IMG/VR virus record: IMGVR_UViG_3300008255_000002
Direction: 5' to 3' (one strand)
Source of the DNA: a virus
Length of the DNA stretch: 64,000 nt
The number at the start of each line of letters is the position of its first letter. Position 1 is the stretch's first letter. The position numbers and the translations under genes are program-made. Of the stretch, positions 1 through 25,151 are shown piece by piece. The notes below the pieces were generated by a model. That model made no database searches, had not been told where the DNA came from, and saw only the letters and a program-made list of their open reading frames with translations.

Positions 1-54
1 GCTCCGCCTACAAGCACTTATAAGGTGCCCCCTGACACTTGCCAGCCATCCCGG
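1..54 (-). tRNA. Partial tRNA-like gene, anticodon UAU (nominally Ile/AUA), non-canonical D-arm, probable long variable arm; 3' half lies outside the window
   Basis: Minus strand reads CCGGGAT GG CTGGC-AAGT-GTCAG GG GGCAC-CTTATAA-GTGCT TGTAGGCGGAGC. It has a 7-nt CU-NNN-AA loop and lies directly downstream of the promoter at 65-92. The T-arm is not visible. Confidence 0.6.
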
Positions 55-11780: not shown

Positions 11781-12050
11781 ATGCATGGACAATCTTTTAA
11801 AATACATGTTGAAGTTGATGAAAATGAGATTTATAGATTAATTGATGAGATGGATAACGAGTCTCGATTAAAGATTTTTGAATATATTGAGTCTAAAATT
11901 GATGGCGAAAAATTTAAAGGTATTGATAAGATTGGTAATAGGTGGCGTGCCAGAATCACACATAAAAAGAAAACATATAATTTGGGATATTTTAAAAATA
12001 AATCTGATGCTAATGAAGCATATAATAAAAAAAGAAATGAATTAGAATAA
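11781..12050 (+). CDS. AP2-domain DNA-binding protein
   Basis: FKGIDKIGNRWRARIT...YNLGYFKNKSDANEAYN. Confidence 0.75.
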   Translation: MHGQSFKIHVEVDENEIYRLIDEMDNESRLKIFEYIESKIDGEKFKGIDKIGNRWRARITHKKKTYNLGYFKNKSDANEAYNKKRNELE

Positions 12051-12251
12051 TATATATTACATTTCGATGCGAAGTGGTAGTTTATATCAACTTTCCCTTG
12101 TTATTTTTTTTTAAACGGTATCTAATAATAAATATATCATAGAATGGGGCGACATCAGTATGTAATGGTGTAATTATATGGGCACTTGCGGCGGGATAGA
12201 TTAAAATGTGATGAAATAAAAAAGCCGCCCGAAATTAATCGATAATCAATT

Positions 12252-12374
12252 CTAAATCATCATAGTACAGTTATTTCCAAATTTCACTTCATAATAAATC
12301 TCTCCCCAACTTTTGATATGTGGATTGTTCTGTCTTAGATATTTAATTACGTCTTCAAGTGAATGATTCGACAT
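12252..12374 (-). CDS. Small hypothetical protein (40 aa)
   Basis: GGGAGG SD before the ATG at 12374; the ORF-track extension to 12617 is unlikely. Confidence 0.5.
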   Translation of the reverse strand: MSNHSLEDVIKYLRQNNPHIKSWGEIYYEVKFGNNCTMMI

Positions 12375-12632
12375 TTTTAAATCCCTCCCGTTGTGGTGTT
12401 TATGGTGCCGCTTCCAAATTGTCCGAATATTTTGACTTGATATGTATAATTCTACCCTGCCACATATTGGTATAATGATAAAAAAGGAATGGCGGGATTG
12501 TTTTATTGATATATGAAAAAGGATTCTGCCGAATTGACCAACTACATGTCGATATGAGCATCGGTGCCGAGAAGGATTTAGATATGTTGAATTAAGGGGT
12601 TGTGGTGCTGGAACCAAATTGCCCTAATGTAT

Positions 12633-12664
12633 AAAAAAAGGGACGCCCCGAAGGACGCCCCTTT
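12633..12664 (-). terminator. Intrinsic terminator
   Basis: AAAGGGGCGTCC-TTCG-GGGCGTCCCTTT followed by a T-run. Confidence 0.85.
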
Positions 12665-12708
12665 ATATATTTACTTTTTTATAGAATTTTGTTTTTTTTA
12701 TTAGTTAA

Positions 12709-13038
12709 TTAGTGTAGTCGTCCCGAGTTTGTCCAACTGTTAATAACTTCATATTTATTCTTATTAATACGTCGCACTCCGCGCCTCACAAATCCCGCAT
12801 AAGGATTTCCACATATATTACAAGTGTGCCCGGTTGATGCCAATTTTACATTCTTAATTAAGCGTCCCTTTATACTTGCGTTTCGGCAAGCCTTGCACTT
12901 ATGATAATTTGCAAACTTCTGAACAGAATAATATTTATTTCCATTTACATCATGCTCAAAGATTACCTCCTCCCCTAAACCAATAAAAATATTTGCGTCC
13001 ATTGCGTCCATTGCTTCTCTCACGGTTCTTTTTAACAT
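12709..13038 (-). CDS. Zn-finger hypothetical protein
   Basis: CKAC...CNIC; GGAGG SD. Confidence 0.65.
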   Translation of the reverse strand: MLKRTVREAMDAMDANIFIGLGEEVIFEHDVNGNKYYSVQKFANYHKCKACRNASIKGRLIKNVKLASTGHTCNICGNPYAGFVRRGVRRINKNKYEVINSWTNSGRLH

Positions 13039-13092
13039 TAGTTCGTCCCTCCAAATGTGTCGTGGTTCCTTGTCTAAATCAGCACACTATCA

Positions 13093-13130
13093 ATCTTACC
13101 ACAAATTCCACCATAGTCAAGAAAATTTTC
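13093..13130 (-). promoter_or_regulatory. Early promoter P9
   Basis: GAAAATTTTC TTGACT, 16 bp, TGg TAAGAT. Confidence 0.8.
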
Positions 13131-13365
13131 ACTGTCACGCTCATTTTGCGATCAATACGCGGCAGCACGGATTTAAAGACGTGGCAACTTCTTCTTTAGG
13201 GAGAGCACACTACCAATAATTAAAGCTATAATAATCATAGTTGATTATCCTTACGACTAAGCATATCGTGACTTGTTTTCATCTTGTAGAAACGTCCATA
13301 CTTGAATAAAGACATGTTAATTCCTCCATTGTGGCTCTGTACTCTGAAATCTAGTCCACTATAGT

Positions 13366-13402
13366 ATTTTACCAGACTTCCAAGGATAGTCAAGAAAATT
13401 TT
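13366..13402 (-). promoter_or_regulatory. Early promoter P10, upstream of a 26-aa ORF at 13235-13315
   Basis: TTGACT, 16 bp, TGg TAAAAT; GGAGG SD. Confidence 0.8.
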
Positions 13403-13519
13403 GGTGGTTTTATCTTTTGATATTTTAAGACATCAATTCATGTGCATGTGTGGCGGGCGGCATCTACATATGTTAAAACGTGGATTCTAAATTTATCGTC
13501 TATTTTTCCAAAAAAGTAT

Positions 13520-13547
13520 TTGCCTATCGTGCATTCTATGGTATATT
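13520..13547 (+). promoter_or_regulatory. Early promoter P11, divergent from P10
   Basis: TTGCCT, 16 bp, TGg TATATT. Confidence 0.75.
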
Positions 13548-13610
13548 GTATTTGTGAGTGATGAATGTCATCGCTCGCGAGATACGGAACACAAGACTGG
13601 AGAACAAAAC

Positions 13611-13988
13611 ATGAGCAAGTTTAATTCCGACAAGGCACAGCGACTTTCCCGTACCTTGAAGCTAGTCGCCGACCCCAACCGTATGCAAGCATTGGCATAT
13701 CTTTATGTCAACGGCGACACAAGCGTCGGTGCATTGTGCTCTGCTATCGGTGTCAGTCAACCGAATTTGAGTATCAATTTGAGAAACTTGTTGATGGTTG
13801 ATATTGTTAATCAGAGGCGCGACGGTAAGAATATGTATTATAGCTTGAACAAACACAGTGAACACTATTCAAGAATAAGGGGTCTCTTGAATGATGTTCT
13901 CGATGATGAGTCTGAAGCCGCGCCCAAAAAGCCAAAGGTGAACAAGTCAAAGAATGTTGATGTTTCGACTGAACTGGTCGAAGTCTAA
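13611..13988 (+). CDS. ArsR/SmtB-family transcriptional regulator
   Basis: LKLVADPNRMQAL...SVGALCSAIGVSQPNLSINL...V.QRRDGKNMYYSL; GGAG SD before 13611. Confidence 0.9.
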   Translation: MSKFNSDKAQRLSRTLKLVADPNRMQALAYLYVNGDTSVGALCSAIGVSQPNLSINLRNLLMVDIVNQRRDGKNMYYSLNKHSEHYSRIRGLLNDVLDDESEAAPKKPKVNKSKNVDVSTELVEV

Positions 13989-14008
13989 CATATAACGACG
14001 TGCCTTAT

Positions 14009-14047
14009 GACCGGGGTGAGCATATTGCTCGTCTCGGTCCTTTTTTA
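14009..14047 (+). terminator. Intrinsic terminator
   Basis: GACCGGGGTGAGC-ATATT-GCTCGTCTCGGTC, then C and T7. Confidence 0.85.
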
Positions 14048-14149
14048 TATATCATATATCAAGATATGTTCATATGTCCATCCGTGACGCACAAGTTGAA
14101 CTGATGTAGATTTGTGTATATATGGATTTCACAGAAAATTATTTTTTTC

Positions 14150-14177
14150 TTGCCTATGCTGGAAATTATGGTATCCT
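14150..14177 (+). promoter_or_regulatory. Early promoter P12
   Basis: TTTTC TTGCCT, 16 bp, TGg TATCCT. Confidence 0.75.
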
Positions 14178-14236
14178 ATTAAGTGTAGGGTTTAACGTTG
14201 AATCCTACTAGCTGACACCATTGATGAGGATTAGAC

Positions 14237-14458
14237 ATGAATGCATTTCAGATTGGAATCGGTGACTTGTTTCCTGCATTCGGACGTGATTACAAGAACA
14301 AGAAGCAGATTCAAGAGGATTTTGATGCGAATAAGGATTTTGTCGATAGTGTGAGTGATAGATATGTAAACAAGTCTCAATTGAAGGAGTTAGGCGTTAC
14401 GCGCGTCATGGTGCGATACGCAAAGAAGACGAAACTTACAGACATCAAGGTTTCTTGA
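14237..14458 (+). CDS. Small conserved phage protein
   Basis: PAFGRDYKNKK...DFDANKDF...VRY; has its own promoter, SD and terminator. Confidence 0.75.
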   Translation: MNAFQIGIGDLFPAFGRDYKNKKQIQEDFDANKDFVDSVSDRYVNKSQLKELGVTRVMVRYAKKTKLTDIKVS

Positions 14459-14464
14459 TAGGTT

Positions 14465-14500
14465 TCCCCGGCATGCTTCGGCTTGTCGGGGATTCTTTTT
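14465..14500 (+). terminator. Intrinsic terminator
   Basis: TCCCCGGCATGC-TTCG-GCTTGTCGGGGA followed by TTCTTTTT. Confidence 0.85.
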
Positions 14501-14642
14501 GCGCATATATATAAAAATGTCTTGATACAATAATATAGCCATCAATACATATGTTTGCGCGCACATATCAAATTATCTACATAGTATTTCTCCCTAACAC
14601 AAGTATTTGGCGATCAATACATATCAACACATAAGCATAAGC

Positions 14643-14740
14643 GGCGATATACATTTACTAATGGACATATCTACATACGTGGCGATATACATTTACTAAT
14701 GGACATATCTACATACGTGGCGATATACATCTACTGATGG
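14643..14740. repeat. 38-bp tandem repeat, about 2.5 copies
   Basis: GGCGATATACATTTACTAATGGACATATCTACATACGT at 14643 and 14681; degenerate third copy from 14719. Confidence 0.9.
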
Positions 14741-14810
14741 TGATATTTAGTTATGTGCATGCGTGGCGAACAAGGTTCGCTGATGTGAACATCTCTTTAT
14801 ATGTTAGCGC

Positions 14811-14849
14811 AAAAGAAAAGATCCGCCCACCCTTTCGGATAGACGGATC
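14811..14849 (-). terminator. Intrinsic terminator ending the 16.66-14.8 kb operon
   Basis: GATCCGTCTATCC-GAAA-GGGTGGGCGGATC followed by TTTTCTTTT. Confidence 0.85.
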
Positions 14850-14855
14850 ATTATA

Positions 14856-15077
14856 TCATACCATCAATCGAATCTCTCCAGTGTCCATGATGCAAACTTC
14901 AGCATATTCTGTTATCAGTGGATCAAACGATTTTATCATTTCAAAATATGCAACCAATGTTAAATCATCCTGAATAGGATTGTTATTAATACCTAACATC
15001 ATGGTATGTTCATGATTGATGCCGGGGAATTTCTTTTCGACTAGACTAAACATCTCGATAATCTGAAGCTTGTTCAT
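14856..15077 (-). CDS. Hypothetical protein
   Basis: 73 aa; GGGAGATTGA SD region shared with neighbouring genes. Confidence 0.7.
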   Translation of the reverse strand: MNKLQIIEMFSLVEKKFPGINHEHTMMLGINNNPIQDDLTLVAYFEMIKSFDPLITEYAEVCIMDTGEIRLMV

Positions 15078-15098
15078 CTCTCAATCTCCCAACGAAAC

Positions 15099-15226
15099 GT
15101 CTCGCGCGAAATGCGCTCGACAAGTAAGTATGCCACCATATTTCAGATGGCATACCTATAAATCAATTCGAACTAGTAACGCGCTAGTTCATTGGACACG
15201 TATAAATGATTTCATCATACGTGCCC
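15099..15226 (-). repeat. Two adjacent twin-hairpin elements (E4 15099-15158, E3 15169-15226)
   Basis: Each is a long hairpin with a GAAA-containing loop followed by a second hairpin (TGAACTAG...CTAGTTCGAATT in E3; more degenerate in E4). Confidence 0.7.
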
Positions 15227-15232
15227 GTTCTC

Positions 15233-15385
15233 TCAATCGATGATCAATCGCGATAACTTATAAACATCCGGTTGCGTTCCTAGAAACCGTCTAGCGTCTC
15301 TTGCTTGACGCCATTTTTTGTACCATTCGCGACGGATCTTGTCAGTAGAATGCCGACGCTTTCGTGTTGCTTCCCCTGCGCTCAT
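15233..15385 (-). CDS. Small basic protein (50 aa, not in the ORF track)
   Basis: MSAGEATRKRRHSTDKIRREWYKKWRQARDARR...; ATGA overlap with the upstream ORF. Confidence 0.55.
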   Translation of the reverse strand: MSAGEATRKRRHSTDKIRREWYKKWRQARDARRFLGTQPDVYKLSRLIID

Positions 15386-15516
15386 TTTGATAGCTCCAAT
15401 GCAACGTCATAGAAACGTGTGAACATTTGAACCGCGTTAACAACTATGATCATGGACATCGCCACGACCGCACTGATGAACACCAGCGCATGAGTCGTTC
15501 CCTGGAATCCTCTCAT
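15382..15516 (-). CDS. Small membrane peptide (44 aa, not in the ORF track)
   Basis: MRGFQGTTHALVFISAVVAMSMIIVVNAVQMF...; AGGGG SD. Confidence 0.6.
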   Translation of the reverse strand: MRGFQGTTHALVFISAVVAMSMIIVVNAVQMFTRFYDVALELSK

Positions 15517-15547
15517 GATTCAATCCCCTAATCAAACGGTTCCAATT

Positions 15548-15604
15548 CGAGCCTAGACGCTCTAGACTCAATAAGCGCCATGCCCTTTCGAGCATGACGC
15601 CTAT
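15548..15604 (-). repeat. Twin-hairpin element E2
   Basis: ATAGGCGTCATGCTC-GAAA-GGGCATGGCGCTTAT, then TGAGTCTAGA-GCG-TCTAGGCTCG AATT. Confidence 0.8.
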
Positions 15605-15610
15605 AACATA

Positions 15611-15898
15611 TCAATGGTTGTAAAGTCTCTTGACCTCGCGCTCATTCGCTTGGTTGTCGTGATAAACATCTCTGAGTCTACCACGCAGGATTCGCGCGGT
15701 TTTCACCGAATCGCGACTCATGAAAACATGCTGAATTGCGAACGGCGTTTTGATGTGAATGATCGTCTCGTCGCCTGCGCCGCTCGCATGATATGTCCCC
15801 GGCTTGATCTCAACACGCTCAATTGTTGTGTCTTTCTTTCCCTGCACAACGATGGTTCCGATTGTCGGTTCTTGAATCGTGATTGCATATGCACGCAT
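15611..15898 (-). CDS. Hypothetical protein
   Basis: GGGAGATTGATC ATG at 15898; the ORF-track extension runs through hairpin E1. Confidence 0.65.
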   Translation of the reverse strand: MRAYAITIQEPTIGTIVVQGKKDTTIERVEIKPGTYHASGAGDETIIHIKTPFAIQHVFMSRDSVKTARILRGRLRDVYHDNQANEREVKRLYNH

Positions 15899-15933
15899 GA
15901 TCAATCTCCCATGCCTACGGCATTTTGCGGAAT

Positions 15934-15992
15934 CGAGCCTAGCCAATCTAGACTCAGATGCTACGCATCCACATTTAAGAATGCGTAGCATT
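15934..15992 (-). repeat. Twin-hairpin element E1
   Basis: ATGCTACGCATTC-TTAAATGT-GGATGCGTAGCAT, then TGAGTCTAG-ATTGG-CTAGGCTCG ATT. Confidence 0.8.
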
Positions 15993-15995
15993 CGA

Positions 15996-16349
15996 TCATT
16001 TTTCGTACCACATGCTTTTCGCATGAATTGGTGTTGATGTGTTCTGTTGAGTGTACGGTTGATTTTCCCATGTTCCTCCAATAAACTTGGCTTCATGCCA
16101 TGTCAATGAAAGCCTGTTAATCGGTTTTAACCATTTCGGATCGATCTTTTTCGGATCAACGTATAGTAATCCGAATTGATCTAGGTTTACCGTTCCCTCC
16201 GATTGATCTCGAAAGCATTGATAGTCAATCTCAATTCCAGAGGGCATGTAGATTTTTCTCCCCTTTAGGGTAGTGGCGAAAATTTGCTTACCCTTGGGAA
16301 CAACAAGTTTAAACCGTAGAATGTCCGAATTGCGATGATTGATCGCCAT
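15996..16349 (-). CDS. Hypothetical protein
   Basis: AAGGGGA SD before the ATG at 16349. Confidence 0.65.
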   Translation of the reverse strand: MAINHRNSDILRFKLVVPKGKQIFATTLKGRKIYMPSGIEIDYQCFRDQSEGTVNLDQFGLLYVDPKKIDPKWLKPINRLSLTWHEAKFIGGTWENQPYTQQNTSTPIHAKSMWYEK

Positions 16350-16405
16350 TGTTCCAAATCCCCTTGATCCCATGAAAAGCCGATTATACGTTATAATCAG
16401 CATAC

Positions 16406-16467
16406 GGAATGCACGGAATCGAACCGTGAAACATGAAAACATGCTTGCGCGCCTATCGCACCATTCC
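16406..16467 (-). ncRNA. 62-nt tRNA-like cloverleaf with no anticodon loop
   Basis: GGAATG GTGCG-ATAGG-CGCGC AAGCATG-TTTT-CATGTTT CACGG-TTCGATT-CCGTG CATTCC. Confidence 0.65.
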
Positions 16468-16496
16468 TTTAGGGGAGATTTTGCGTTTCTTAAACG

Positions 16497-16616
16497 CTTG
16501 CTTGACCTGTCATATGAACGTTCTCTTATGGTATTACGTTATGCTCTAAACATAATTCAGGATTGTTCAGATCCAGCAATAAGCATAAGATACTTGCTCG
16601 CATGCGGGTTTCAAGC
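16497..16616 (-). ncRNA. Branched structured RNA in the operon leader
   Basis: Nested stems GCTTGA/TCAAGC, TCTTATG/CATAAGA, TATTGC/GTAATA, GGAT/ATCC and TTATGT/GCATAA. Confidence 0.5.
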
Positions 16617-16621
16617 TTTCG

Positions 16622-16656
16622 AGTTTTCAAAGATCGTTTGACGGTTTCTCGCCGTC
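16622..16656 (-). promoter_or_regulatory. rRNA-leader-like boxB hairpin plus boxA antitermination signal
   Basis: GACGG-CGAGAAA-CCGTC, AAAC, then GATCTTTGAAAACT, immediately after the P13 -10 box. Confidence 0.7.
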
Positions 16657-16663
16657 TGTTCCC

Positions 16664-16700
16664 ATTATAGCATTTTTTCCAACCATTCAAGAAAAATTTC
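16664..16700 (-). promoter_or_regulatory. Early promoter P13
   Basis: TTTTTC TTGAAT, 15 bp, TGc TATAAT. Confidence 0.75.
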
Positions 16701-16973
16701 TGGAAAATTCTAAATCGTTGTGACGCAACAACTTACAACCATCCAACATTACTGATATGTAAGATCACCTACTAATAAATTCTTTACGTGAAAAGATTGC
16801 TATAGTATAACATCTACATACGTTTATATCGAGACATGTTGTATTGATTAATCTACATATGAATGAATAGGGGGGTTTTTATGATTTACATGTGCCTATG
16901 TGTTTATATGAAAATATGCAGGGGGAGTACAAACAAACCTCCCATCAAAAAAACAAAACCCATCAGTAGAACG

Positions 16974-17816
16974 CTATCGCTGTCTTTTCTTTTCTTTTTC
17001 TTTTAGCAACTTTGCTCCGCGAATCCCTTTATCATATCTATAGTGAATCGTACTTTTTGTCACCTTGCATCTTTTATCCCTCGCCCACTCTCGTAGCGAT
17101 TTCTTTTCACCGAAAATTTCGACAACTATCCCTTTAGGTCCACGACGCACGCAATCGCCCTGTTCCAACAACGCGGTTCCACGTATCCCTTTAGAATATC
17201 GTTTGCGCAACAAACTATATGGTGCTTTGCATCTTGGGTCGCGTGACCATTCATATAAAGTCTTCGTCTCTCCTAATTCATTAATACTTACGGGTTCTCC
17301 CTGATTCTTGAATTTGCGGCGCGGCGGTACATAGTTCTTATCATACCACGTATCGTTATTTAAAATTTTCCACACCGTACATTTAAATTTATTTTCCAAT
17401 TTGATATGTGACCACCCCTCTAAGTAAAACCTCCTGATTTTATTTACGATTTCCCATGTAAGTTCAGATTTTTTTGACGACATCTCAAGTTCTTTTTTAA
17501 TTGATTCGCGAAGTCGTTTTGTGGCAGTTCTGGTATTTGAGCCGCGAGCTACGAGAAAAGGTCCCCTCATCATAATGCACATAACACCTTCAGTTATATT
17601 GATCGATCCAATACGAAAAACTCTCCCATAAATCTTTATACGCGAAATTACTAAATTATTTTGGTTAGGGGAGGTTCTATATAAACCGTGTTGCATTCTC
17701 AGGGCGCCTATATTTTTAGCTGTATAACTGGTGCCGCACTTTGAGTTGATGTAGAGCACCATTTCATAATCAGTTTTTTTTGTGTAGTATTCTTTGATAT
17801 AATCAATAATATCCAT
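16974..17816 (-). CDS. DNA-binding protein with duplicated homing-endonuclease-type DNA-binding repeats
   Basis: GETKTLYEWSRDPRCK...RYSKGIRG repeated as GEKKSLREWARDKRCK...RYDKGIRG; no nuclease motif seen. Confidence 0.65.
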   Translation of the reverse strand: MDIIDYIKEYYTKKTDYEMVLYINSKCGTSYTAKNIGALRMQHGLYRTSPNQNNLVISRIKIYGRVFRIGSINITEGVMCIMMRGPFLVARGSNTRTATKRLRESIKKELEMSSKKSELTWEIVNKIRRFYLEGWSHIKLENKFKCTVWKILNNDTWYDKNYVPPRRKFKNQGEPVSINELGETKTLYEWSRDPRCKAPYSLLRKRYSKGIRGTALLEQGDCVRRGPKGIVVEIFGEKKSLREWARDKRCKVTKSTIHYRYDKGIRGAKLLKEKEKKRQR

Positions 17817-17934
17817 TGGGGGATTCCTAAAATGATATTTATTCCTGTTAAAATAAATACAATTAATATAAAGGAGCATGCAGTTGCGTGCGAATTAAAA
17901 CAAGAAGATCCATTAAACGCAGAGGAAATTATAT

Positions 17935-18423
17935 ATGAACATACAGTACAAAACAGAGATCGAACAGTTTCAGGGGGCACAATCGGAACAAAGATTAATC
18001 GAGATAATTAATTTTGTCATCGATAAACTTTATACACAGTTTGAATTTTCTTATTATACAAAAGATGATATTAGACAAGAGGCGTGGGTAATGATACTTG
18101 ATGCGTTTGCCAAGGGTTCATATGATCAAAATCGCCCAATCGAAAAATTTGCCTATAGACACATCAAAAATAGATTAATTAATCTGCGGCGCGACAAATT
18201 AAAAAATGATACCTCGCAACAATCATTAATGAATACTTCCGAAATTTTAATTGACCCGGAAGATTATTTTGTTCCCTATCATGATAACATTTCCCTAATC
18301 GAACAACGTATTCCCTGTTACCTCAGAAGTGATTTTTTGCGATTACTCGATGGGGTGCGCATCCCCGAATATAAGAAAAATAAAATTAAAAGGTATCTAT
18401 ATGAAGAAGAAATTATTAATTAA
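17935..18423 (+). CDS. Phage-encoded sigma factor (region 2 core), likely the late sigma
   Basis: YTKDDIRQEAWVMILD...YDQNRPIEKFAYRHIKNRLINLRRD; first gene of the virion module. Confidence 0.75.
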   Translation: MNIQYKTEIEQFQGAQSEQRLIEIINFVIDKLYTQFEFSYYTKDDIRQEAWVMILDAFAKGSYDQNRPIEKFAYRHIKNRLINLRRDKLKNDTSQQSLMNTSEILIDPEDYFVPYHDNISLIEQRIPCYLRSDFLRLLDGVRIPEYKKNKIKRYLYEEEIIN

Positions 18424-19279: not shown

Positions 19280-19766
19280 ATGCAAAAAGTAAAAGTTTTA
19301 GTTGATACTCGTGAACAATGTCCGTGGAAATTTACGGAAAATAGTTGGTGTTCTGGATCTGAAATTACAACACTAAAAACGGGCGATTATACTTTAGAGG
19401 GGTTTGAAGATAAATTGTGTGTAGAAAAAAAAAAGCGTAAACGAATTTTATAATAATATTGTAACTAAAGATTATATTCGTTTTACTAAAGAGTTAGAAC
19501 GTATGAAACCTTTCCCTAACAAATATATTATCTTATGTTTTAATATGAATGATATTATTAAGTTTCCCTGGTCTACAGACCTACCAATTCACGTAAAAAG
19601 AAAAATTGTCGCAAGAGGCAGTAAATCAGATTTCTTCCTAAAAAGATTTGTTGAACTTCAAATAGCCTATCCAGATATTCATTTTCTTTTATGTGGGGAT
19701 GAAGCTGAAAAGGTTGTTAGTTCTATATTTAAAAGAGTGGTAGAATATTATGCAGAAAAAAGTTAA
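19280..19766 (+). pseudogene. ERCC4-domain nuclease split by a +1 frameshift in an A10 run
   Basis: Frame 0 reads VLVDTREQCPW...LKTGDYTLEG...LCVEKK and stops at 19453. The +1 frame continues SVNEFYNNI...RFTKELERMKPFP into ORF 19503-19766. Confidence 0.8.
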
Positions 19767-22700
19767 TCTTAGAGATTTTTTCGATAAATATTATGAAGAT
19801 GGAGAGGATGAATTTTCTTATCTAGAAACAGATGGAGGTTTAGATTTAGACGATTTAGCAAAATCAGAAATAGACATATCTAACAATCCATTTTTTGATA
19901 AAAAAGAAGATGCAGTTAGGAAGTTTTGTAGGGTTATTAGAGATCCAGATTATCTACCATTTACATGTGAACATGTTTTTAATATAGAGTTACTTCCTAC
20001 ATATCACGTCACAATGAAGCATTTATATAATCATTCCTTCCCAATGCTTATTGGTAGTCGTGGATTTGGAAAAAGCTTTACATTAGCTTTATATATATTG
20101 TGGCGACTATTAATTAATCAAGGTATTAAAGTTGTTGTTGTTGGTGCGGCATTCCGCCAATCAAAACTTATATTTAATTATTGTTTATCTATTCTTGAAC
20201 GTGCGCCGGTATATCAAAGTATGTGTGGAAATGGTTCTAAGATCAAGATATTAAAAGGGAACGATAAATGCACTATTCAGGTCGGTGAAAGTTTTGCAAC
20301 GTTTTTACCATTAGGTGATGGAGAAACAATTCGTGGTGAACGTGCTAATATTATTATTGCTGATGAATTTTCCATGATACCAGTTGATGTATATGAAACT
20401 GTTGTTAAAGGGTTTACTGCTGTTTCTCAAAATCCTATTAAAAACGTTAAACAAATCGCCAAAATGATGAGAAAAAAGAAAAAAGGATTATGGTCAAAAG
20501 AACAAGAAATTCTTTTTCAAGAAATGATGAAGTCTAATCAATCAATTGTATCTGGTACTGCATATTATTCTTTTAATTCTTTTTGTGATTATTGGAAAAA
20601 ATATAAAAAAATTATACAAAATAAAAATATAAAAGAAGCTGTTAAAGAAGAGGATGCTTATGCGCATTGTAATCGTAAAGATTTTTGTGTGCTTCGTATT
20701 CCTTTTGATTTAATTCCAACAGGATTTTTGGATATGAAATCCTTAAATCAAACAAAGGAAATGATCGCGGATTCTACATTTCAAATGGAATATGGCGCAT
20801 GTTTAACTCCAGATACAGAAGTTATTACATTAGACGGGATTAAAAAAATTATTAATGTAAAGGTTGGAGATTATGTATTAACACATCTTGGAAGGTGGCG
20901 AAAAGTTATCGAAGTAATGAAGCGGAAATATTTAGGTAATATATATAAAATTAAAGCATATGGAAATAATCAAAATATAGGCGTGACCCCAAACCATCCA
21001 TTTTATATTGATGAGGATTGGGAAAATTCTGCCAATTTAAAAAATAAAAAATTAGAACTTGCAAGATTTAATCATCTTAATAATACAACATCAATTAAAA
21101 TATCTGATTATGTAGATAGTATATGTAAAACAGTAGTTAATGATGTAGAATATGTTTATCCTAAACCATCACAATTAAAATGTTTTAAAGATCATCATAT
21201 AAAATATAAATCATGCATTCCAAATGAAATTAAACTTGATTATAATTTCGGATTGATTATTGGTTATTATGCGGCGGAAGGTAGCGTTGGAGCAAATGGT
21301 AGGGCGGTTTCTTTTTCTCTTGATGGTCATGTTGATATTAGTTTATTAGAATATATAAAAGAATTGAAAGATGCCCTTTTATCAACTTTTGAAATGAATT
21401 CCGTAGAATATCCAAAAGAAGATAATGTTGTTGATGTTTGTATGAACAGTAGATTAGTATCTGATCTATTAAAAAAAATATGTCCTAGTGTATCAGATAC
21501 AAAACATGTTAATACAGATATATTATACTCAAATCCAGAATTTATGAAGGGGTTTATTACTGGTTATTGGCATGGTGCCGGATGTGTACATAAAGATAAA
21601 TCAAGAAACAGATATCGTATTGTCGCGGGATGCACAAATAAATCTCTTTTATCTCAAGTTCGATTATGTATGTCTTATTTTGGTATTAAATCATCTTTAA
21701 ATAATGGAAAAGAAAAACATAAATCTTACTTTAGAGGGAGGGTATGTAATTGTAAACCATCATATATAGTACAAATATCAGAATCGTATTTAGATGAGTT
21801 TATTAAATTTATATCCGACAAAGAATATTTCCCCCCTAACCAAAATAAAAAAACACATAAGTTTATAAAGAGAGTTTATAAAGAAGAACATTATAGTGGA
21901 TTTGTTTATAATTTAGAAGTTGAGGAAGATCATAGTTATTCATTAATTAATGCTACAGTACATAATTGTTTTCCTGAAGATTCCAATGGTTTCTTTACTA
22001 GAAAATTAATTGAATCTTGTGTTGTGAAATCAGAAAGACAAATAGGACACGAAATTATATATCCTTTTACGGCAAGTATTATTGGTATAGACCATCCATT
22101 ATTTTATGCAATGGGTGTGGACCCTGCATCAGCAGAGGATAATTTTAGTATTGTTGTTATATCTGTATACCAAACATATAGAAAAATTGTTTATTGTTGG
22201 ACTATTAGAAAATCTATTCTTGCAGAACATATTAAAGAAGGTAGGGTTGATCAACAGGATTATTATGGATATTGCGCGAAAAAAATTAGAAATGTTATGA
22301 AGTCATTTTCTCCGTGCGAAATTATTGCTTTGGATGCTCAGGGTGGTGGTGAAGCTGGCGTAGCAGAAGCATTAGCAGATAAAGATAAATATTCAGAAAA
22401 AGACCTTCCTATATTCCCCGTAACAGAAGACCATCCGTTTTGGGATGGTAAAGAACGACATACAGATAAAATGACAGGGAAACATATTATTGAATTAGTT
22501 CAATTCGCGCGTGCTGATTATATTTCAGAAGCTAATCACGGATTAAAGAAAGATATGATAGATAAGGTATTACTATTTCCTATATTTGATGCAATATCTT
22601 TATCTACCGCACAATACCACGATGACGAAGAAGGCTTAGAATATGATAATTTAGAATTATGTATGTTAGAAATAGAAGAATTAAAAGATGAATTAGCGAC

Positions 22701-23001
22701 GATTCAACATGGACAACATCCAAAAACCAATAGAGATTATTGGGATACTCCAGAAAAGAAACTTGCCGAAAACAAAAAGGGTCGGTTAAGGAAGGATAGA
22801 TATAGCGCTTTATTAATAGCAAATATGGCGGCGCGTCGCTTACAACGCATGCCAGAAATATATAACAGAATGGTTGTTGGTGGTTTTGCTCAAAAATCAT
22901 CTATTAAAAAACAAATTAATTCCGGGGATAAAAATTTGTTTGTTGGTCCGCAAAAATACGTTAAGTCATTAAATATTTGTGCTGCTGTACGTAGACAATA
23001 A
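19750..23001 (+). CDS. terL: Terminase large subunit containing an intein
   Basis: Walker A GSRGFGKS, IRGERANIIIADEF, nuclease MGVDPA and RKDRYSAL. Confidence 0.95.
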   Translation: MQKKVNLRDFFDKYYEDGEDEFSYLETDGGLDLDDLAKSEIDISNNPFFDKKEDAVRKFCRVIRDPDYLPFTCEHVFNIELLPTYHVTMKHLYNHSFPMLIGSRGFGKSFTLALYILWRLLINQGIKVVVVGAAFRQSKLIFNYCLSILERAPVYQSMCGNGSKIKILKGNDKCTIQVGESFATFLPLGDGETIRGERANIIIADEFSMIPVDVYETVVKGFTAVSQNPIKNVKQIAKMMRKKKKGLWSKEQEILFQEMMKSNQSIVSGTAYYSFNSFCDYWKKYKKIIQNKNIKEAVKEEDAYAHCNRKDFCVLRIPFDLIPTGFLDMKSLNQTKEMIADSTFQMEYGACLTPDTEVITLDGIKKIINVKVGDYVLTHLGRWRKVIEVMKRKYLGNIYKIKAYGNNQNIGVTPNHPFYIDEDWENSANLKNKKLELARFNHLNNTTSIKISDYVDSICKTVVNDVEYVYPKPSQLKCFKDHHIKYKSCIPNEIKLDYNFGLIIGYYAAEGSVGANGRAVSFSLDGHVDISLLEYIKELKDALLSTFEMNSVEYPKEDNVVDVCMNSRLVSDLLKKICPSVSDTKHVNTDILYSNPEFMKGFITGYWHGAGCVHKDKSRNRYRIVAGCTNKSLLSQVRLCMSYFGIKSSLNNGKEKHKSYFRGRVCNCKPSYIVQISESYLDEFIKFISDKEYFPPNQNKKTHKFIKRVYKEEHYSGFVYNLEVEEDHSYSLINATVHNCFPEDSNGFFTRKLIESCVVKSERQIGHEIIYPFTASIIGIDHPLFYAMGVDPASAEDNFSIVVISVYQTYRKIVYCWTIRKSILAEHIKEGRVDQQDYYGYCAKKIRNVMKSFSPCEIIALDAQGGGEAGVAEALADKDKYSEKDLPIFPVTEDHPFWDGKERHTDKMTGKHIIELVQFARADYISEANHGLKKDMIDKVLLFPIFDAISLSTAQYHDDEEGLEYDNLELCMLEIEELKDELATIQHGQHPKTNRDYWDTPEKKLAENKKGRLRKDRYSALLIANMAARRLQRMPEIYNRMVVGGFAQKSSIKKQINSGDKNLFVGPQKYVKSLNICAAVRRQ
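20800..21966 (+). mobile_element. Intein (389 aa) with LAGLIDADG homing endonuclease
   Basis: QMEYGA|CLTPDTEV, block B VTPNHPF, VYNLEVEEDHSY...VHN|CF; LAGLIDADG helices GLIIGYYAAEGS and GFITGYWHGAGC. Confidence 0.95.
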
Positions 23002-23020: not shown

Positions 23021-23048
23021 TTGTATTACATTATAATTGAGGGGCGTT

Positions 23049-25151
23049 ATGACAAAAAAGTATTACAGCACAAATAGCAAGGATAGAAAATATAATAATT
23101 CTCTTCGAGAGGCGTCAAAAGCGATAGATCAAATAACTCCTATTAATAGAACGAGTGCTAATTCTCAATTTAGGGAATATAGAGATATTTTACCTAATAC
23201 GTCTATCAGAGACGGATTTTCTAAATATGACTATGATTACTTTAATAAAGAAGATGCAATACCAAAATCTAAAAATTCTATTCTTGCAATATGTACAGCA
23301 GCATATTATAGAGTTGGTTTAATTCGTAATATTATAGATTTAATGGGGGATGTCGCGTCACAAGGAATTAGAATTGTACACCCAAATAAAACTACAGAAA
23401 AATTTTATCAGGCATGGTTTAAAAAAGTTGGCGGCAAAGAACGCTCCGAAAGATTTTTAAATTTATTATATCGTAATGGCAATGTTATTGTTAAAAGAGC
23501 ATCTAAAAAAATTAAAGATCAAGAGCAATTTATAAAAGAATTAAGATCTCAAGCAAGTATTAATTCTCCCTCTAATGAAATGCCTTGGCAGTATTTTTTC
23601 CTAGATCCTTTATCTATTGAGCGCGAAAGTGCTGTTTTATCTACTTTTTGTAATACTCCTTTATTCAGTATGAAGATTCCTACTCAGTTAAGAAAAATTA
23701 TTATGGAACCTTCAAATGAATATGAAAGGGATTTAGTAAAAGAAATACCTCAAGATATTAAAAATGCAATTAAAAGTAAGAAAAATGATAGTAATTCATC
23801 TATACGTATTATTTTAGATCCATCTAAGGTTAGGTCTTTTTATTATAAGAAAGATGATTGGATGCCTTGGGCACACCCTATGATTTATGCGATTCTTGAT
23901 GATCTTATTTTATTAGAGAAGATGAAATTAGCTGATTTAACCGCTCTTGATGGTGCTGTTTCACATATTCGTTTGTGGACTCTTGGTGATTTAGAACATG
24001 ATATTTTTCCTACAGAAGAAGCGGTTCGTAAATTAACAGATTTACTTATAAATACTGCTGGAAATGGTAGTGTTCTTGATTTAATTTGGGGTCCAGGATT
24101 AAAATTAACAGAAACAAATAGTAATATATATCAATTCTTAGGTGGCGAAAAATACACAAATGTTTTATCTAATATCTATGGTGGCTTAGGGATTCCTCAA
24201 ATGTTAACTGGTTCAAGCAGTAAAGGAGGAATGTCTACTGATTTTATGCAGATCAAAACGCTTGTTAAAAGATTAGAATATGGAAGAGAACAATTAATGG
24301 TTTTTTGGTTAGGGGAAATAGAAATTATTCGTAGGGTTATGAGTGGGCGCAAAGGATTTTCTTCTAAAAAAATGCCAGATATTATTTTTGATCATATGAG
24401 TTTAACTGATGAAGCAGCTCAAACAAAATTAATTTTAGATATGCTGGACCGCGAAATAATTTCTATTAAAACTGCTCGCGAAGACCTTGGTTATATCCAT
24501 AGTCTTGAAGAATCAAGACTTGATGAAGAAATTGAAACAAGAGCTAAGAAACCGAAAGTTTCTCCTTATCATGCCTCACAACCCGACCATGATTATAAGA
24601 AATTATTTATTCAACGTGGCGTGATGACACCTTCTCAGGTTGGTTTAGAATTACCAGATCCCAAACCATCTGAAAAATTTATACTTGAAGATAAATCGCA
24701 ACCTAAGAATACCCTTCCCTCTAACAAAAAAAAGGGTACTCCCGGCGAAGGTCGCCCTAAAAACGCAACAGATACTCAACCGCGCAAACGTCGCACACCA
24801 CTTGTAGCAAATCTATTTTGGGTTCAATCCGCATATGATGATATTTCATCTTTTGTTTTTGATGTTTTATCTGTAAAATTCAATAAGGCTAATTTAAGAA
24901 AATTTACTAATGAAGAATATAAAATGTTTGAAGATTTAAAATTTGGTGTTTTATGTAATGTAGAACCATTTTCAAAAATAACTGAAGATATTTTAATTAA
25001 AGCTATTAGTAAACCGTTTATTAAATATGGAAAAGCTAAAACAATTTATCAAAATATATTTAATGAATTTGTATCAACATACAACCAAGAACCAACAATA
25101 GATCAACGTAAACAGATTTGTTGTTTAGCTTACCTGGAGATTATTGAATGA
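23049..25151 (+). CDS. Portal protein
   Basis: Follows terL; AYYRVGLIRNIIDLMGD, YYKKDDWMPWAHP, GLGIPQML; about 700 aa. Confidence 0.85.
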   Translation: MTKKYYSTNSKDRKYNNSLREASKAIDQITPINRTSANSQFREYRDILPNTSIRDGFSKYDYDYFNKEDAIPKSKNSILAICTAAYYRVGLIRNIIDLMGDVASQGIRIVHPNKTTEKFYQAWFKKVGGKERSERFLNLLYRNGNVIVKRASKKIKDQEQFIKELRSQASINSPSNEMPWQYFFLDPLSIERESAVLSTFCNTPLFSMKIPTQLRKIIMEPSNEYERDLVKEIPQDIKNAIKSKKNDSNSSIRIILDPSKVRSFYYKKDDWMPWAHPMIYAILDDLILLEKMKLADLTALDGAVSHIRLWTLGDLEHDIFPTEEAVRKLTDLLINTAGNGSVLDLIWGPGLKLTETNSNIYQFLGGEKYTNVLSNIYGGLGIPQMLTGSSSKGGMSTDFMQIKTLVKRLEYGREQLMVFWLGEIEIIRRVMSGRKGFSSKKMPDIIFDHMSLTDEAAQTKLILDMLDREIISIKTAREDLGYIHSLEESRLDEEIETRAKKPKVSPYHASQPDHDYKKLFIQRGVMTPSQVGLELPDPKPSEKFILEDKSQPKNTLPSNKKKGTPGEGRPKNATDTQPRKRRTPLVANLFWVQSAYDDISSFVFDVLSVKFNKANLRKFTNEEYKMFEDLKFGVLCNVEPFSKITEDILIKAISKPFIKYGKAKTIYQNIFNEFVSTYNQEPTIDQRKQICCLAYLEIIE

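Follow-up and report, generated by a model that had tools for sequence, protein, structure and literature searches.

tRNA-shaped processing signals are textbook knowledge for mitochondria, as tRNA punctuation and as the t-elements of plants, and for a few eukaryotic lncRNAs. In plant mitochondrial mRNAs, the leaders and trailers can carry t-elements, cloverleaves that are non-canonical except for a perfect T-arm (Forner et al. 2007, PMC1920247; Ceriotti et al. 2024, PMC11658184); they direct RNase P and RNase Z in cis, and once excised they receive a CCA tail but no amino acid (PMC1920247; PMC11658184). In MALAT1, the transcript ends are set by RNase P and RNase Z at such a fold, which is thereby freed as a small tRNA-like RNA (PMC8457004). 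Among bacteria, YrlA of Mycobacterium smegmatis is an RNase P substrate that acquires a CCA tail (Chen et al. 2014, PMC4201824). For phage operons, our literature search turned up no account of tRNA-shaped processing signals as a conserved component.

The element described here belongs to an uncultured phage of about 154 kb and 30% G+C that has no close relative among deposited phages, and was analysed within a window of 64,000 nucleotides (IMG/VR record IMGVR_UViG_3300008255_000002). The window also carries a large terminase gene (19750-23001, plus strand), into which an intein bearing a LAGLIDADG homing endonuclease is inserted, and the portal gene (23037-25151); relatives such as L024 have a terminase without the intein. 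The stretch between 12 and 18 kb, with 37-42% G+C, includes a minus-strand early operon of small orphan genes, and the syntenic block of a metagenome locus, L032 (JGI 3300068451), has 43-53% G+C. This GC-richer block may be a horizontally moving cassette; no att-like direct repeats were found flanking it. Besides the operon, the block (12000-18000) encodes a regulator of the ArsR/MarR type (13554-13988) and has ATCTACATA motifs and, at 14618-14757, a tandem repeat of 38 bp. The features of the operon that concern us are the following.

16664..16690, minus strand: likely early promoter, with TTGAAT at 16690-16685, a 15-nt spacer and TGc-TATAAT whose -10 is at 16669-16664 (read from the sequence).
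16622..16656, minus strand: boxB-like hairpin GACGG-CGAGAAA-CCGUC (16656-16640), then boxA-like GAUCUUUGAAAACU (16635-16622) (from the sequence).
16471..16478, minus strand: C-rich tract UCUCCCCU, 3 nt 5' of the cloverleaf (sequence and pairing prediction).
16467..16406, minus strand: core of the tRNA-shaped RNA without an anticodon, closing helix extendable to 16469..16404 (fold, covariance model and compensatory changes).
16375..16401, minus strand: 10-bp hairpin GCUGAUUAUA-ACG-UAUAAUCGGC followed by UUUU (sequence and folding).
15996..16365, minus strand: RBS AAGGGGA (16365-16359), ATG at 16349 and ORF A, 117 aa, ending at 15996 (homolog alignments).

The core reads GGAAUG / GUGCG-AUAGG-CGCGC / AAGCAUG-UUUU-CAUGUUU / CACGG-UUCGAUU-CCGUG / CAUUCC, and is built from a 6-bp closing stem, a 5-bp D-like arm with an AUAGG loop, a 7-bp arm with a UUUU loop and a 5-bp T-arm with a UUCGAUU loop. 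It has 23 pairs, two of them G-U, and zero linker bases; the 3' flank is GUAUGC, and CCA is absent. An earlier note, made from the letters of the window, had described a linker-free cloverleaf with these arms and no CCA, and this description matches the minus strand exactly: the four-way junction is precisely the lowest-energy fold of the 62-mer (-23.7 kcal/mol, z -3.0; 2 of 200 shuffles fold equally well), and the complementary plus strand is 8 kcal/mol worse (-15.7 kcal/mol, z -1.8). The cloverleaf is also the lowest-energy fold in contexts of 111, 151, 191, 266 and 466 nt, and in one 336-nt context it lies 1 kcal/mol above the minimum. When the closing helix is extended to eight positions it comprises seven Watson-Crick pairs and one A.G. 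There is no second copy of the cloverleaf within the window. The hairpin of its 7-bp arm, AGCAUGUUUUCAUG (16420-16445, minus strand), recurs with 22 of 26 bases in ORF B at 15707-15732 (minus strand), 713 nt downstream.

An exhaustive HMMER search with the 117-aa ORF A yielded three remote homologs of similar length, one of which (P0019) is located in L032. That locus is syntenic with the window: the upstream 30x-aa proteins share 28% identity (E 2e-29), the ORF A proteins 38% (E 1e-13), and the ORF B match is weak. A covariance model, R1, built from the window copy alone finds a match in L032 at 1686-1749, 45 nt upstream of the ORF A homolog, with 22.7 bits (E 1.3e-5). The L032 60-mer at 1688-1747 (GAUCCG / GCGC-GAUGG-GCGC / UUAGGCA-CGGA-UGCCUAA / UCUAG-UUCAACU-CUAGA / CGGGUC) folds independently into a linker-free cloverleaf (-25.3 kcal/mol, z -3.0), which is the lowest-energy fold in contexts of 151-599 nt, where its closing helix has 8 bp. 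Arm sizes are common to the two copies, and neither has linkers. In the two-sequence alignment all 23 pairs are standard in both copies, 14 of them differing at both bases and one at a single base, a count that comes from a single pairwise comparison of two members with the alignment fitted to the model; the 8-position closing helix adds a fifteenth double change (A-U to G-C). Controls in which the pairing partner was slid by 1-3 columns gave 0-2 compensatory changes.

Conservation of sequence is confined to the D-like arm GCGAU[A/G]GGCGC, the UUCRA T-loop, G53-C61 and the end pairs of the closing stem, and the 7-bp arm and its tetraloop keep their size and not their sequence. Past the closing helix, the 3' side of either copy begins with an unpaired A followed by U; CCA is encoded in neither, and 2-3 nt further on there is a hairpin of 9-10 bp with a 3-nt loop, followed by an RBS and ATG. 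The L032 hairpin (GCUAUCUAA-CGG-UUAGGUAGC) has the size and place of its window counterpart but a different sequence, and it is followed by only UUU as against UUUU in the window; the window hairpin (16375..16401) begins 2 nt past the 8-position closing helix. The L032 element is intercistronic and starts 9 nt past the stop of a 77-aa gene. Both loci thus show the fold, preserved through compensatory changes, at a fixed position and with a hairpin as its partner. Because 23 pairs survive a complete turnover of sequence, as would be expected neither of a decayed tRNA nor of a chance fold, we conclude from sequence comparison that the element is a conserved functional RNA. No cloverleaf was found upstream of the other two remote ORF A homologs (L030 and L031), and the whole module is absent from the distant syntenic phage L024, so the element is not required for the gene family. 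A 14-bit model match in L031 was rejected, as it is on the wrong strand, lies inside a gene and does not fold.

These comparisons bear on whether the structure could be a chance fold, or a DNA-level signal of three adjacent protein-bound palindromes. A T-loop-like 11-mer with up to two mismatches, taken alone, occurs in the window at chance frequency, and relaxing the arms to 4 bp yields 13 cloverleaves there, both of which would suit an accidental structure. However, under a strict definition (arms of at least 5 bp, a closing stem of at least 6 bp, linker-free) the window has one cloverleaf where shuffled windows have 0.075 each, and an independent second copy with re-written arms stands at the orthologous site. 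Palindromes acting as DNA are excluded by the G-U pairs, which are on the gene-sense strand, and on that strand only, in both lineages, and the energy deficit of the complementary strand argues the same way. We regard both forms of this explanation as very improbable.

The element could also be a functionless remnant, of a decayed tRNA gene or of a tRNA-derived attachment site. In favour of this are the canonical T-arm, the resemblance of one arm to a D-arm, the occurrence of GCGAUAGGCGC in genuine phage tRNA-Gln genes as part of their D region, and the tRNA genes that the phage has elsewhere. Decay erodes pairing, however, and here every stem is intact in both lineages despite a divergence to 38% identity in ORF A, with 14-15 compensatory changes and no linker or anticodon remnants; since the stems differ throughout, the L032 copy is not a recent transfer of the same sequence. 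A search of GTDB (185,579 species) with the 20-nt T-arm/acceptor 3' half returned only two unrelated Pirellulaceae tRNA-array sequences, and because no bacterial tRNA shares this 3' half a fragment of an attachment site is argued against; flanking direct repeats were not found either. The earlier note had held that a normal tRNA at this place in relatives would mark the element as decayed; the single orthologous locus has instead the same anticodon-less cloverleaf. A dead remnant is extremely improbable. The Pirellulaceae MAG contigs (L019 and L020) carry 28-39 tRNA genes within 5-8 kb, in arrays that include uncalled long-arm tRNA-like sequences (for example L020 3265-3348).

Both copies possess several tRNA hallmarks: a 5-bp T-arm, a UUCRANY loop (UUCGAUU in the window, UUCAACU in L032), G53-C61 and GG in the D-like loop (AUAGG and GAUGG, respectively). 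The window copy, inside the ORF A leader, matches the GGTTCRANYCC T-arm motif (GGTTCGATTCC), and the L032 copy, between two genes, retains TTCRANY and has lost the flanking GG/CC (AGTTCAACTCT). At the anticodon position there is a 7-bp arm closed by UUUU in the window or CGGA in L032, and no seven-base loop on a 5-bp stem; the closing helix has 6 bp or eight positions rather than forming a 7-bp acceptor, and linkers 8, 9, 26 and 44-48 are missing. The statement in the earlier note that the RNA cannot decode is borne out, as both copies have a closed 7-bp arm and a tetraloop where an anticodon loop would be. ARAGORN at an 80% threshold (-ps80) gives, for the window copy, only a forced and poor fit to tRNA-Pro(AGG), whereas at its standard threshold it calls a tRNA in neither copy. 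Rfam has no match at E<=10 to the window copy, and it likewise misses the L032 copy, with the tRNA-Sec model included.

Searches for further copies covered several collections. Other assemblies of the same phage number five (L001-L005, L016-L018) and are 99.9-100% identical; they are the same clone, and no near relatives were found that would supply local variation. The element had no blastn match among INPHARED phage records, and in IMG/VR neither an exact 28-mer nor a loop-fixed, stem-free pattern was found. The loop-fixed pattern had three matches in JGI metagenomes, all of them unrelated. The pattern GCGATRGGCG..GTTCRAYTC occurs at 18 IMG/VR loci, and the best matches examined to a second model, R2 (the cloverleaf plus the hairpin), are genuine tRNA-Gln genes or do not fold. 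The element is absent from the portal and sigma relatives in IMG/VR (L006-L013, L024-L029). Queries of IMG/VR with the 301-aa upstream protein alone and with the A5 alignment returned nothing, the A2 profile detected no further ORF A homologs, and clusters of the operon proteins held no diverged members; P0005 proved to be an unrelated bacterial locus.

Transcription is predicted to start near 16657, from a promoter of the TTTTCTTGA...TATAAT design used in the other early promoters of the phage, which a consensus scan missed because the spacer is 15 nt. The exact sequence TCTTTGAAAACT occurs once in the window. The boxA-like motif GAUCUUUGAAAACU agrees at 13 of 14 positions with GTTCTTTGAAAACT, a conserved rrn-spacer primer site in mycoplasmas, and at the matching place the L032 leader has UGCUCUUUGACAA (1248-1262), which we take to be an E. 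coli-type boxA. The presence of a boxB-like hairpin and a boxA-like motif at both loci suggests that a structured early operon may be subject to rrn-type antitermination. About 190 nt downstream, the tract UCUCCCCU is predicted to be able to pair with the RBS AAGGGGA (-11 kcal/mol) or with an internal AGGGGAGA at 16264-16257 (8+3 bp, -18 kcal/mol), and removal of the leader raises the predicted accessibility of the internal AGGGGAGA ten-fold. Strong pairing is seen in the window phage alone; only the CCCUA part of the tract is kept in L032, and so any anti-SD role that we infer for it would be specific to this lineage.

Because its homologs align from residue 3-6, the start of ORF A is fixed at 16349. 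The protein belongs to no Pfam or PHROGs family; its AlphaFold model is a small all-beta protein (pLDDT 85-90 over residues 10-70) with weak SH3b-like structure matches only (E>=0.09). Residues 49-104 match nine stretches of P0015 (2303 aa), which also bears cohesin, Ig-like and type IX secretion sorting domains, and six stretches of P0017 (561 aa), and on account of these repeated matches the beta-rich fold may be a module of wide occurrence. Between ORF A and ORF B lies a spacer with very strong predicted structure (z -5.1 for window 15895-15999 on the minus strand, z -6.1 for L032 2100-2222); at both loci it has a hairpin that precedes GAUUC, so a 'twin-hairpin' punctuation of the operon appears to be conserved too. 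Upstream of the promoter, the 301-aa protein (16974-17879, minus strand; L032 counterpart 1-921, 28% identity) ends in two repeats resembling the region with which phage HNH endonucleases bind DNA (phrog_3377); since L032 has retained it along with the operon, it may be part of the module rather than a stray homing gene.

The make-up of the leader raises the question of whether the fold acts in cis without being cut, as a protein-binding operator or an attenuator; it might, for example, mediate feedback by an operon protein, or set read-through and ribosome access together with the hairpin. Such a role would suit its fixed position between leader and RBS, the terminator-like score of the window hairpin with its UUUU, the boxA-like antitermination signal in both leaders and the C-rich tract able to pair with the RBS region. 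The terminator character is weak, however, and not kept in L032, where UUU alone follows; the anti-SD tract is not conserved either, and the SH3-like all-beta model of ORF A points to no detectable RNA-binding family. Nor does a structure that stays uncut explain the retention of a canonical T-loop and a D-loop GG, and we consider it doubtful. The hairpin itself is likely to be either the 5' stabiliser of a cut mRNA or a weak terminator or attenuator.

The account that we tentatively favour, without going so far as to call it probable, draws on analogy with the plant-mitochondrial t-element, the nearest counterpart on record: the cloverleaf would be a processing module in the early-operon transcript, placed directly before ORF A, the first gene of the operon. 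RNase P, RNase Z and the CCA-adding enzyme read the tRNA elbow and the acceptor/T stack, and the half of a tRNA read by end-processing enzymes is kept here, as a closing (acceptor-like) helix stacked on a canonical T-arm with a D-like loop GG that could dock on the T-loop, the anticodon arm having been swapped for an inert 7-bp hairpin of fixed length. Host RNase P would cut on the 5' side of the cloverleaf, and/or RNase Z after the first unpaired 3' base (the A that precedes U). Such a cut would sever the ORF A message from the upstream RNA, which in the window phage is the ~190-nt boxA-type leader with its C-rich anti-SD tract and in L032 the upstream cistron. The new mRNA 5' end would then lie 1-3 nt from the conserved hairpin and could be protected from 5'-end-dependent decay, as a 5'-terminal stem-loop is known to protect mRNAs.

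The earlier note had offered two functions, and the first, a processing tag that cuts the leader from the mRNA, has become the leading reading on the strength of a shape and position conserved before the same gene family, together with the T-loop, G53-C61, the GG and the hairpin; cleavage, the enzymes involved and the effect on expression are the parts of it that we infer. Bacterial tRNA precursors that lack CCA are matured by RNase Z and the CCA-adding enzyme, and the genuine tRNA-Leu(UAA) of this phage has no encoded CCA, with A73 followed by UUA in a flank resembling that of the cloverleaf, so the host-phage system must mature CCA-less substrates. Counted against cleavage is the closing helix, of 6 bp or eight positions in the window and 8 bp in L032 compared with the canonical 7 bp, and pairing between the 5' and 3' flanks could hinder both RNase P and RNase Z. 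Should cleavage prove true, phages would be enlisting two host enzymes, RNase P and RNase Z, in the cutting and stabilisation of early messages, by means of a compact and portable RNA-processing cassette.

The phage has other tRNA-like genes. At window 1-54 (minus strand), continuing in L016 at 13995-14062, there is a cloverleaf RNA under an early promoter whose anticodon is UAU; its D-stem of 5 bp closes a 4-nt loop, and its T-loop, AGCGUUA, is non-canonical. ARAGORN makes no call, and the fold has a z of only -0.3. Just beyond the window start, in the same phage, are a tRNA-like RNA that lacks a D-arm and has UCU in its anticodon loop as well as a long extra arm (L016 16432-16517; a weak Rfam tRNA-Sec match, 26.9 bits) and the tRNA-Leu(UAA) (L016 14842-14926), whose CCA is not encoded.

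The second function offered was that of a decoy, for anticodon nucleases or other tRNA-sensing defences. Anticodon nucleases are an unlikely target because the RNA offers them no anticodon loop; a decoy might still work on enzymes that recognise a tRNA by its acceptor/T-arm half. A tRNA mimic of this kind would act in trans: the excised 62-69-nt RNA would sequester or distract a host factor that recognises the acceptor/T-arm/elbow half, for which a synthetase, the CCA-adding enzyme and a toxin that modifies tRNA ends are examples. The elbow-forming sequences are indeed the conserved part, the 7-bp arm preserves tRNA-like overall dimensions, the UAU RNA with its 5-bp D-stem and the D-armless UCU RNA are further odd tRNA-like genes of the same phage, and the YrlA of M. 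smegmatis provides a precedent of a bacterial tRNA mimic that is cut by RNase P and CCA-tailed. Nevertheless, there is one copy per genome, it always lies within an mRNA before one gene and with a 5'-proximal hairpin, an arrangement that suits a role in cis, and anticodon nucleases would find no loop to distract them. We judge action in trans unlikely; neither it nor an uncut fold in cis is mutually exclusive with a processing module.

A more elaborate version takes the element for a mimic of class II (Ser/Sec-type) tRNAs without an anticodon arm, excised from an rrn-style, boxA-antiterminated transcript, CCA-tailed and acting in trans. The 8+5 stack of closing helix and T-stem resembles bacterial tRNA-Sec, and R1 matches to real tRNA-Ser genes align the 7-bp arm with the long variable arm, so such a mimic is possible; the traits that would suit class II are this stack, the compactness of the D-arm and the long helix next to the T-arm. 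The mimic could possibly soak up a tRNA-end-targeting defence toxin of the host or seryl-tRNA synthetase, or carry an amino acid non-ribosomally, and its excision would simultaneously switch on the first early gene. We think this improbable.

Returning to the processing module and the systems with which we began, the element shares with canonical (RF00005) and phage tRNAs, including class II tRNA-Ser and tRNA-Sec, the cloverleaf topology, the canonical T-loop, G53-C61 and the D-loop GG, and differs from them in having no anticodon loop and no U8, N9, N26 or variable linkers. The YrlA Y RNAs (Rfam RF02553) are likewise bacterial and phage tRNA mimics with T- and D-arm features, but YrlA is permuted relative to tRNA, has a Ro60-binding stem with GNCGAAN0-1G and adjoins rsr (PMC4201824), whereas the phage element has no Rfam match at E<=10 and no Ro60-binding stem, and no TROVE/Ro60 protein was found among the neighbouring proteins tested. 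The mascRNA/MALAT1 and MEN-beta 3' structures resemble it as tRNA-like folds inside a longer transcript and differ in belonging to eukaryotic nuclear lncRNAs, in their 7-bp acceptor and anticodon-like arm with a loop, and in their unrelated sequence. With t-elements it has in common a non-canonical cloverleaf in an mRNA, a GGTTCRANYCC T-arm, no encoded CCA and no decoding. The t-elements, however, are recognisable homologs of particular tRNA genes, mostly with a remnant of the anticodon arm and with linkers, whereas the phage element is linker-free with a closed 7-bp/tetraloop arm and a helix of six or eight positions, and resides in operons of bacterial phages, where its cleavage is predicted. 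Its likeness to tRNAs is generic, real tRNAs scoring 10-23 bits with R1, and no bacterial tRNA shares its 3' half. To these descriptions the present analysis adds a comparison between two phage-like loci that, with only 38% identity in ORF A, have a linker-free, anticodon-less cloverleaf and a companion hairpin at the same spot, nearly every stem pair being re-written.
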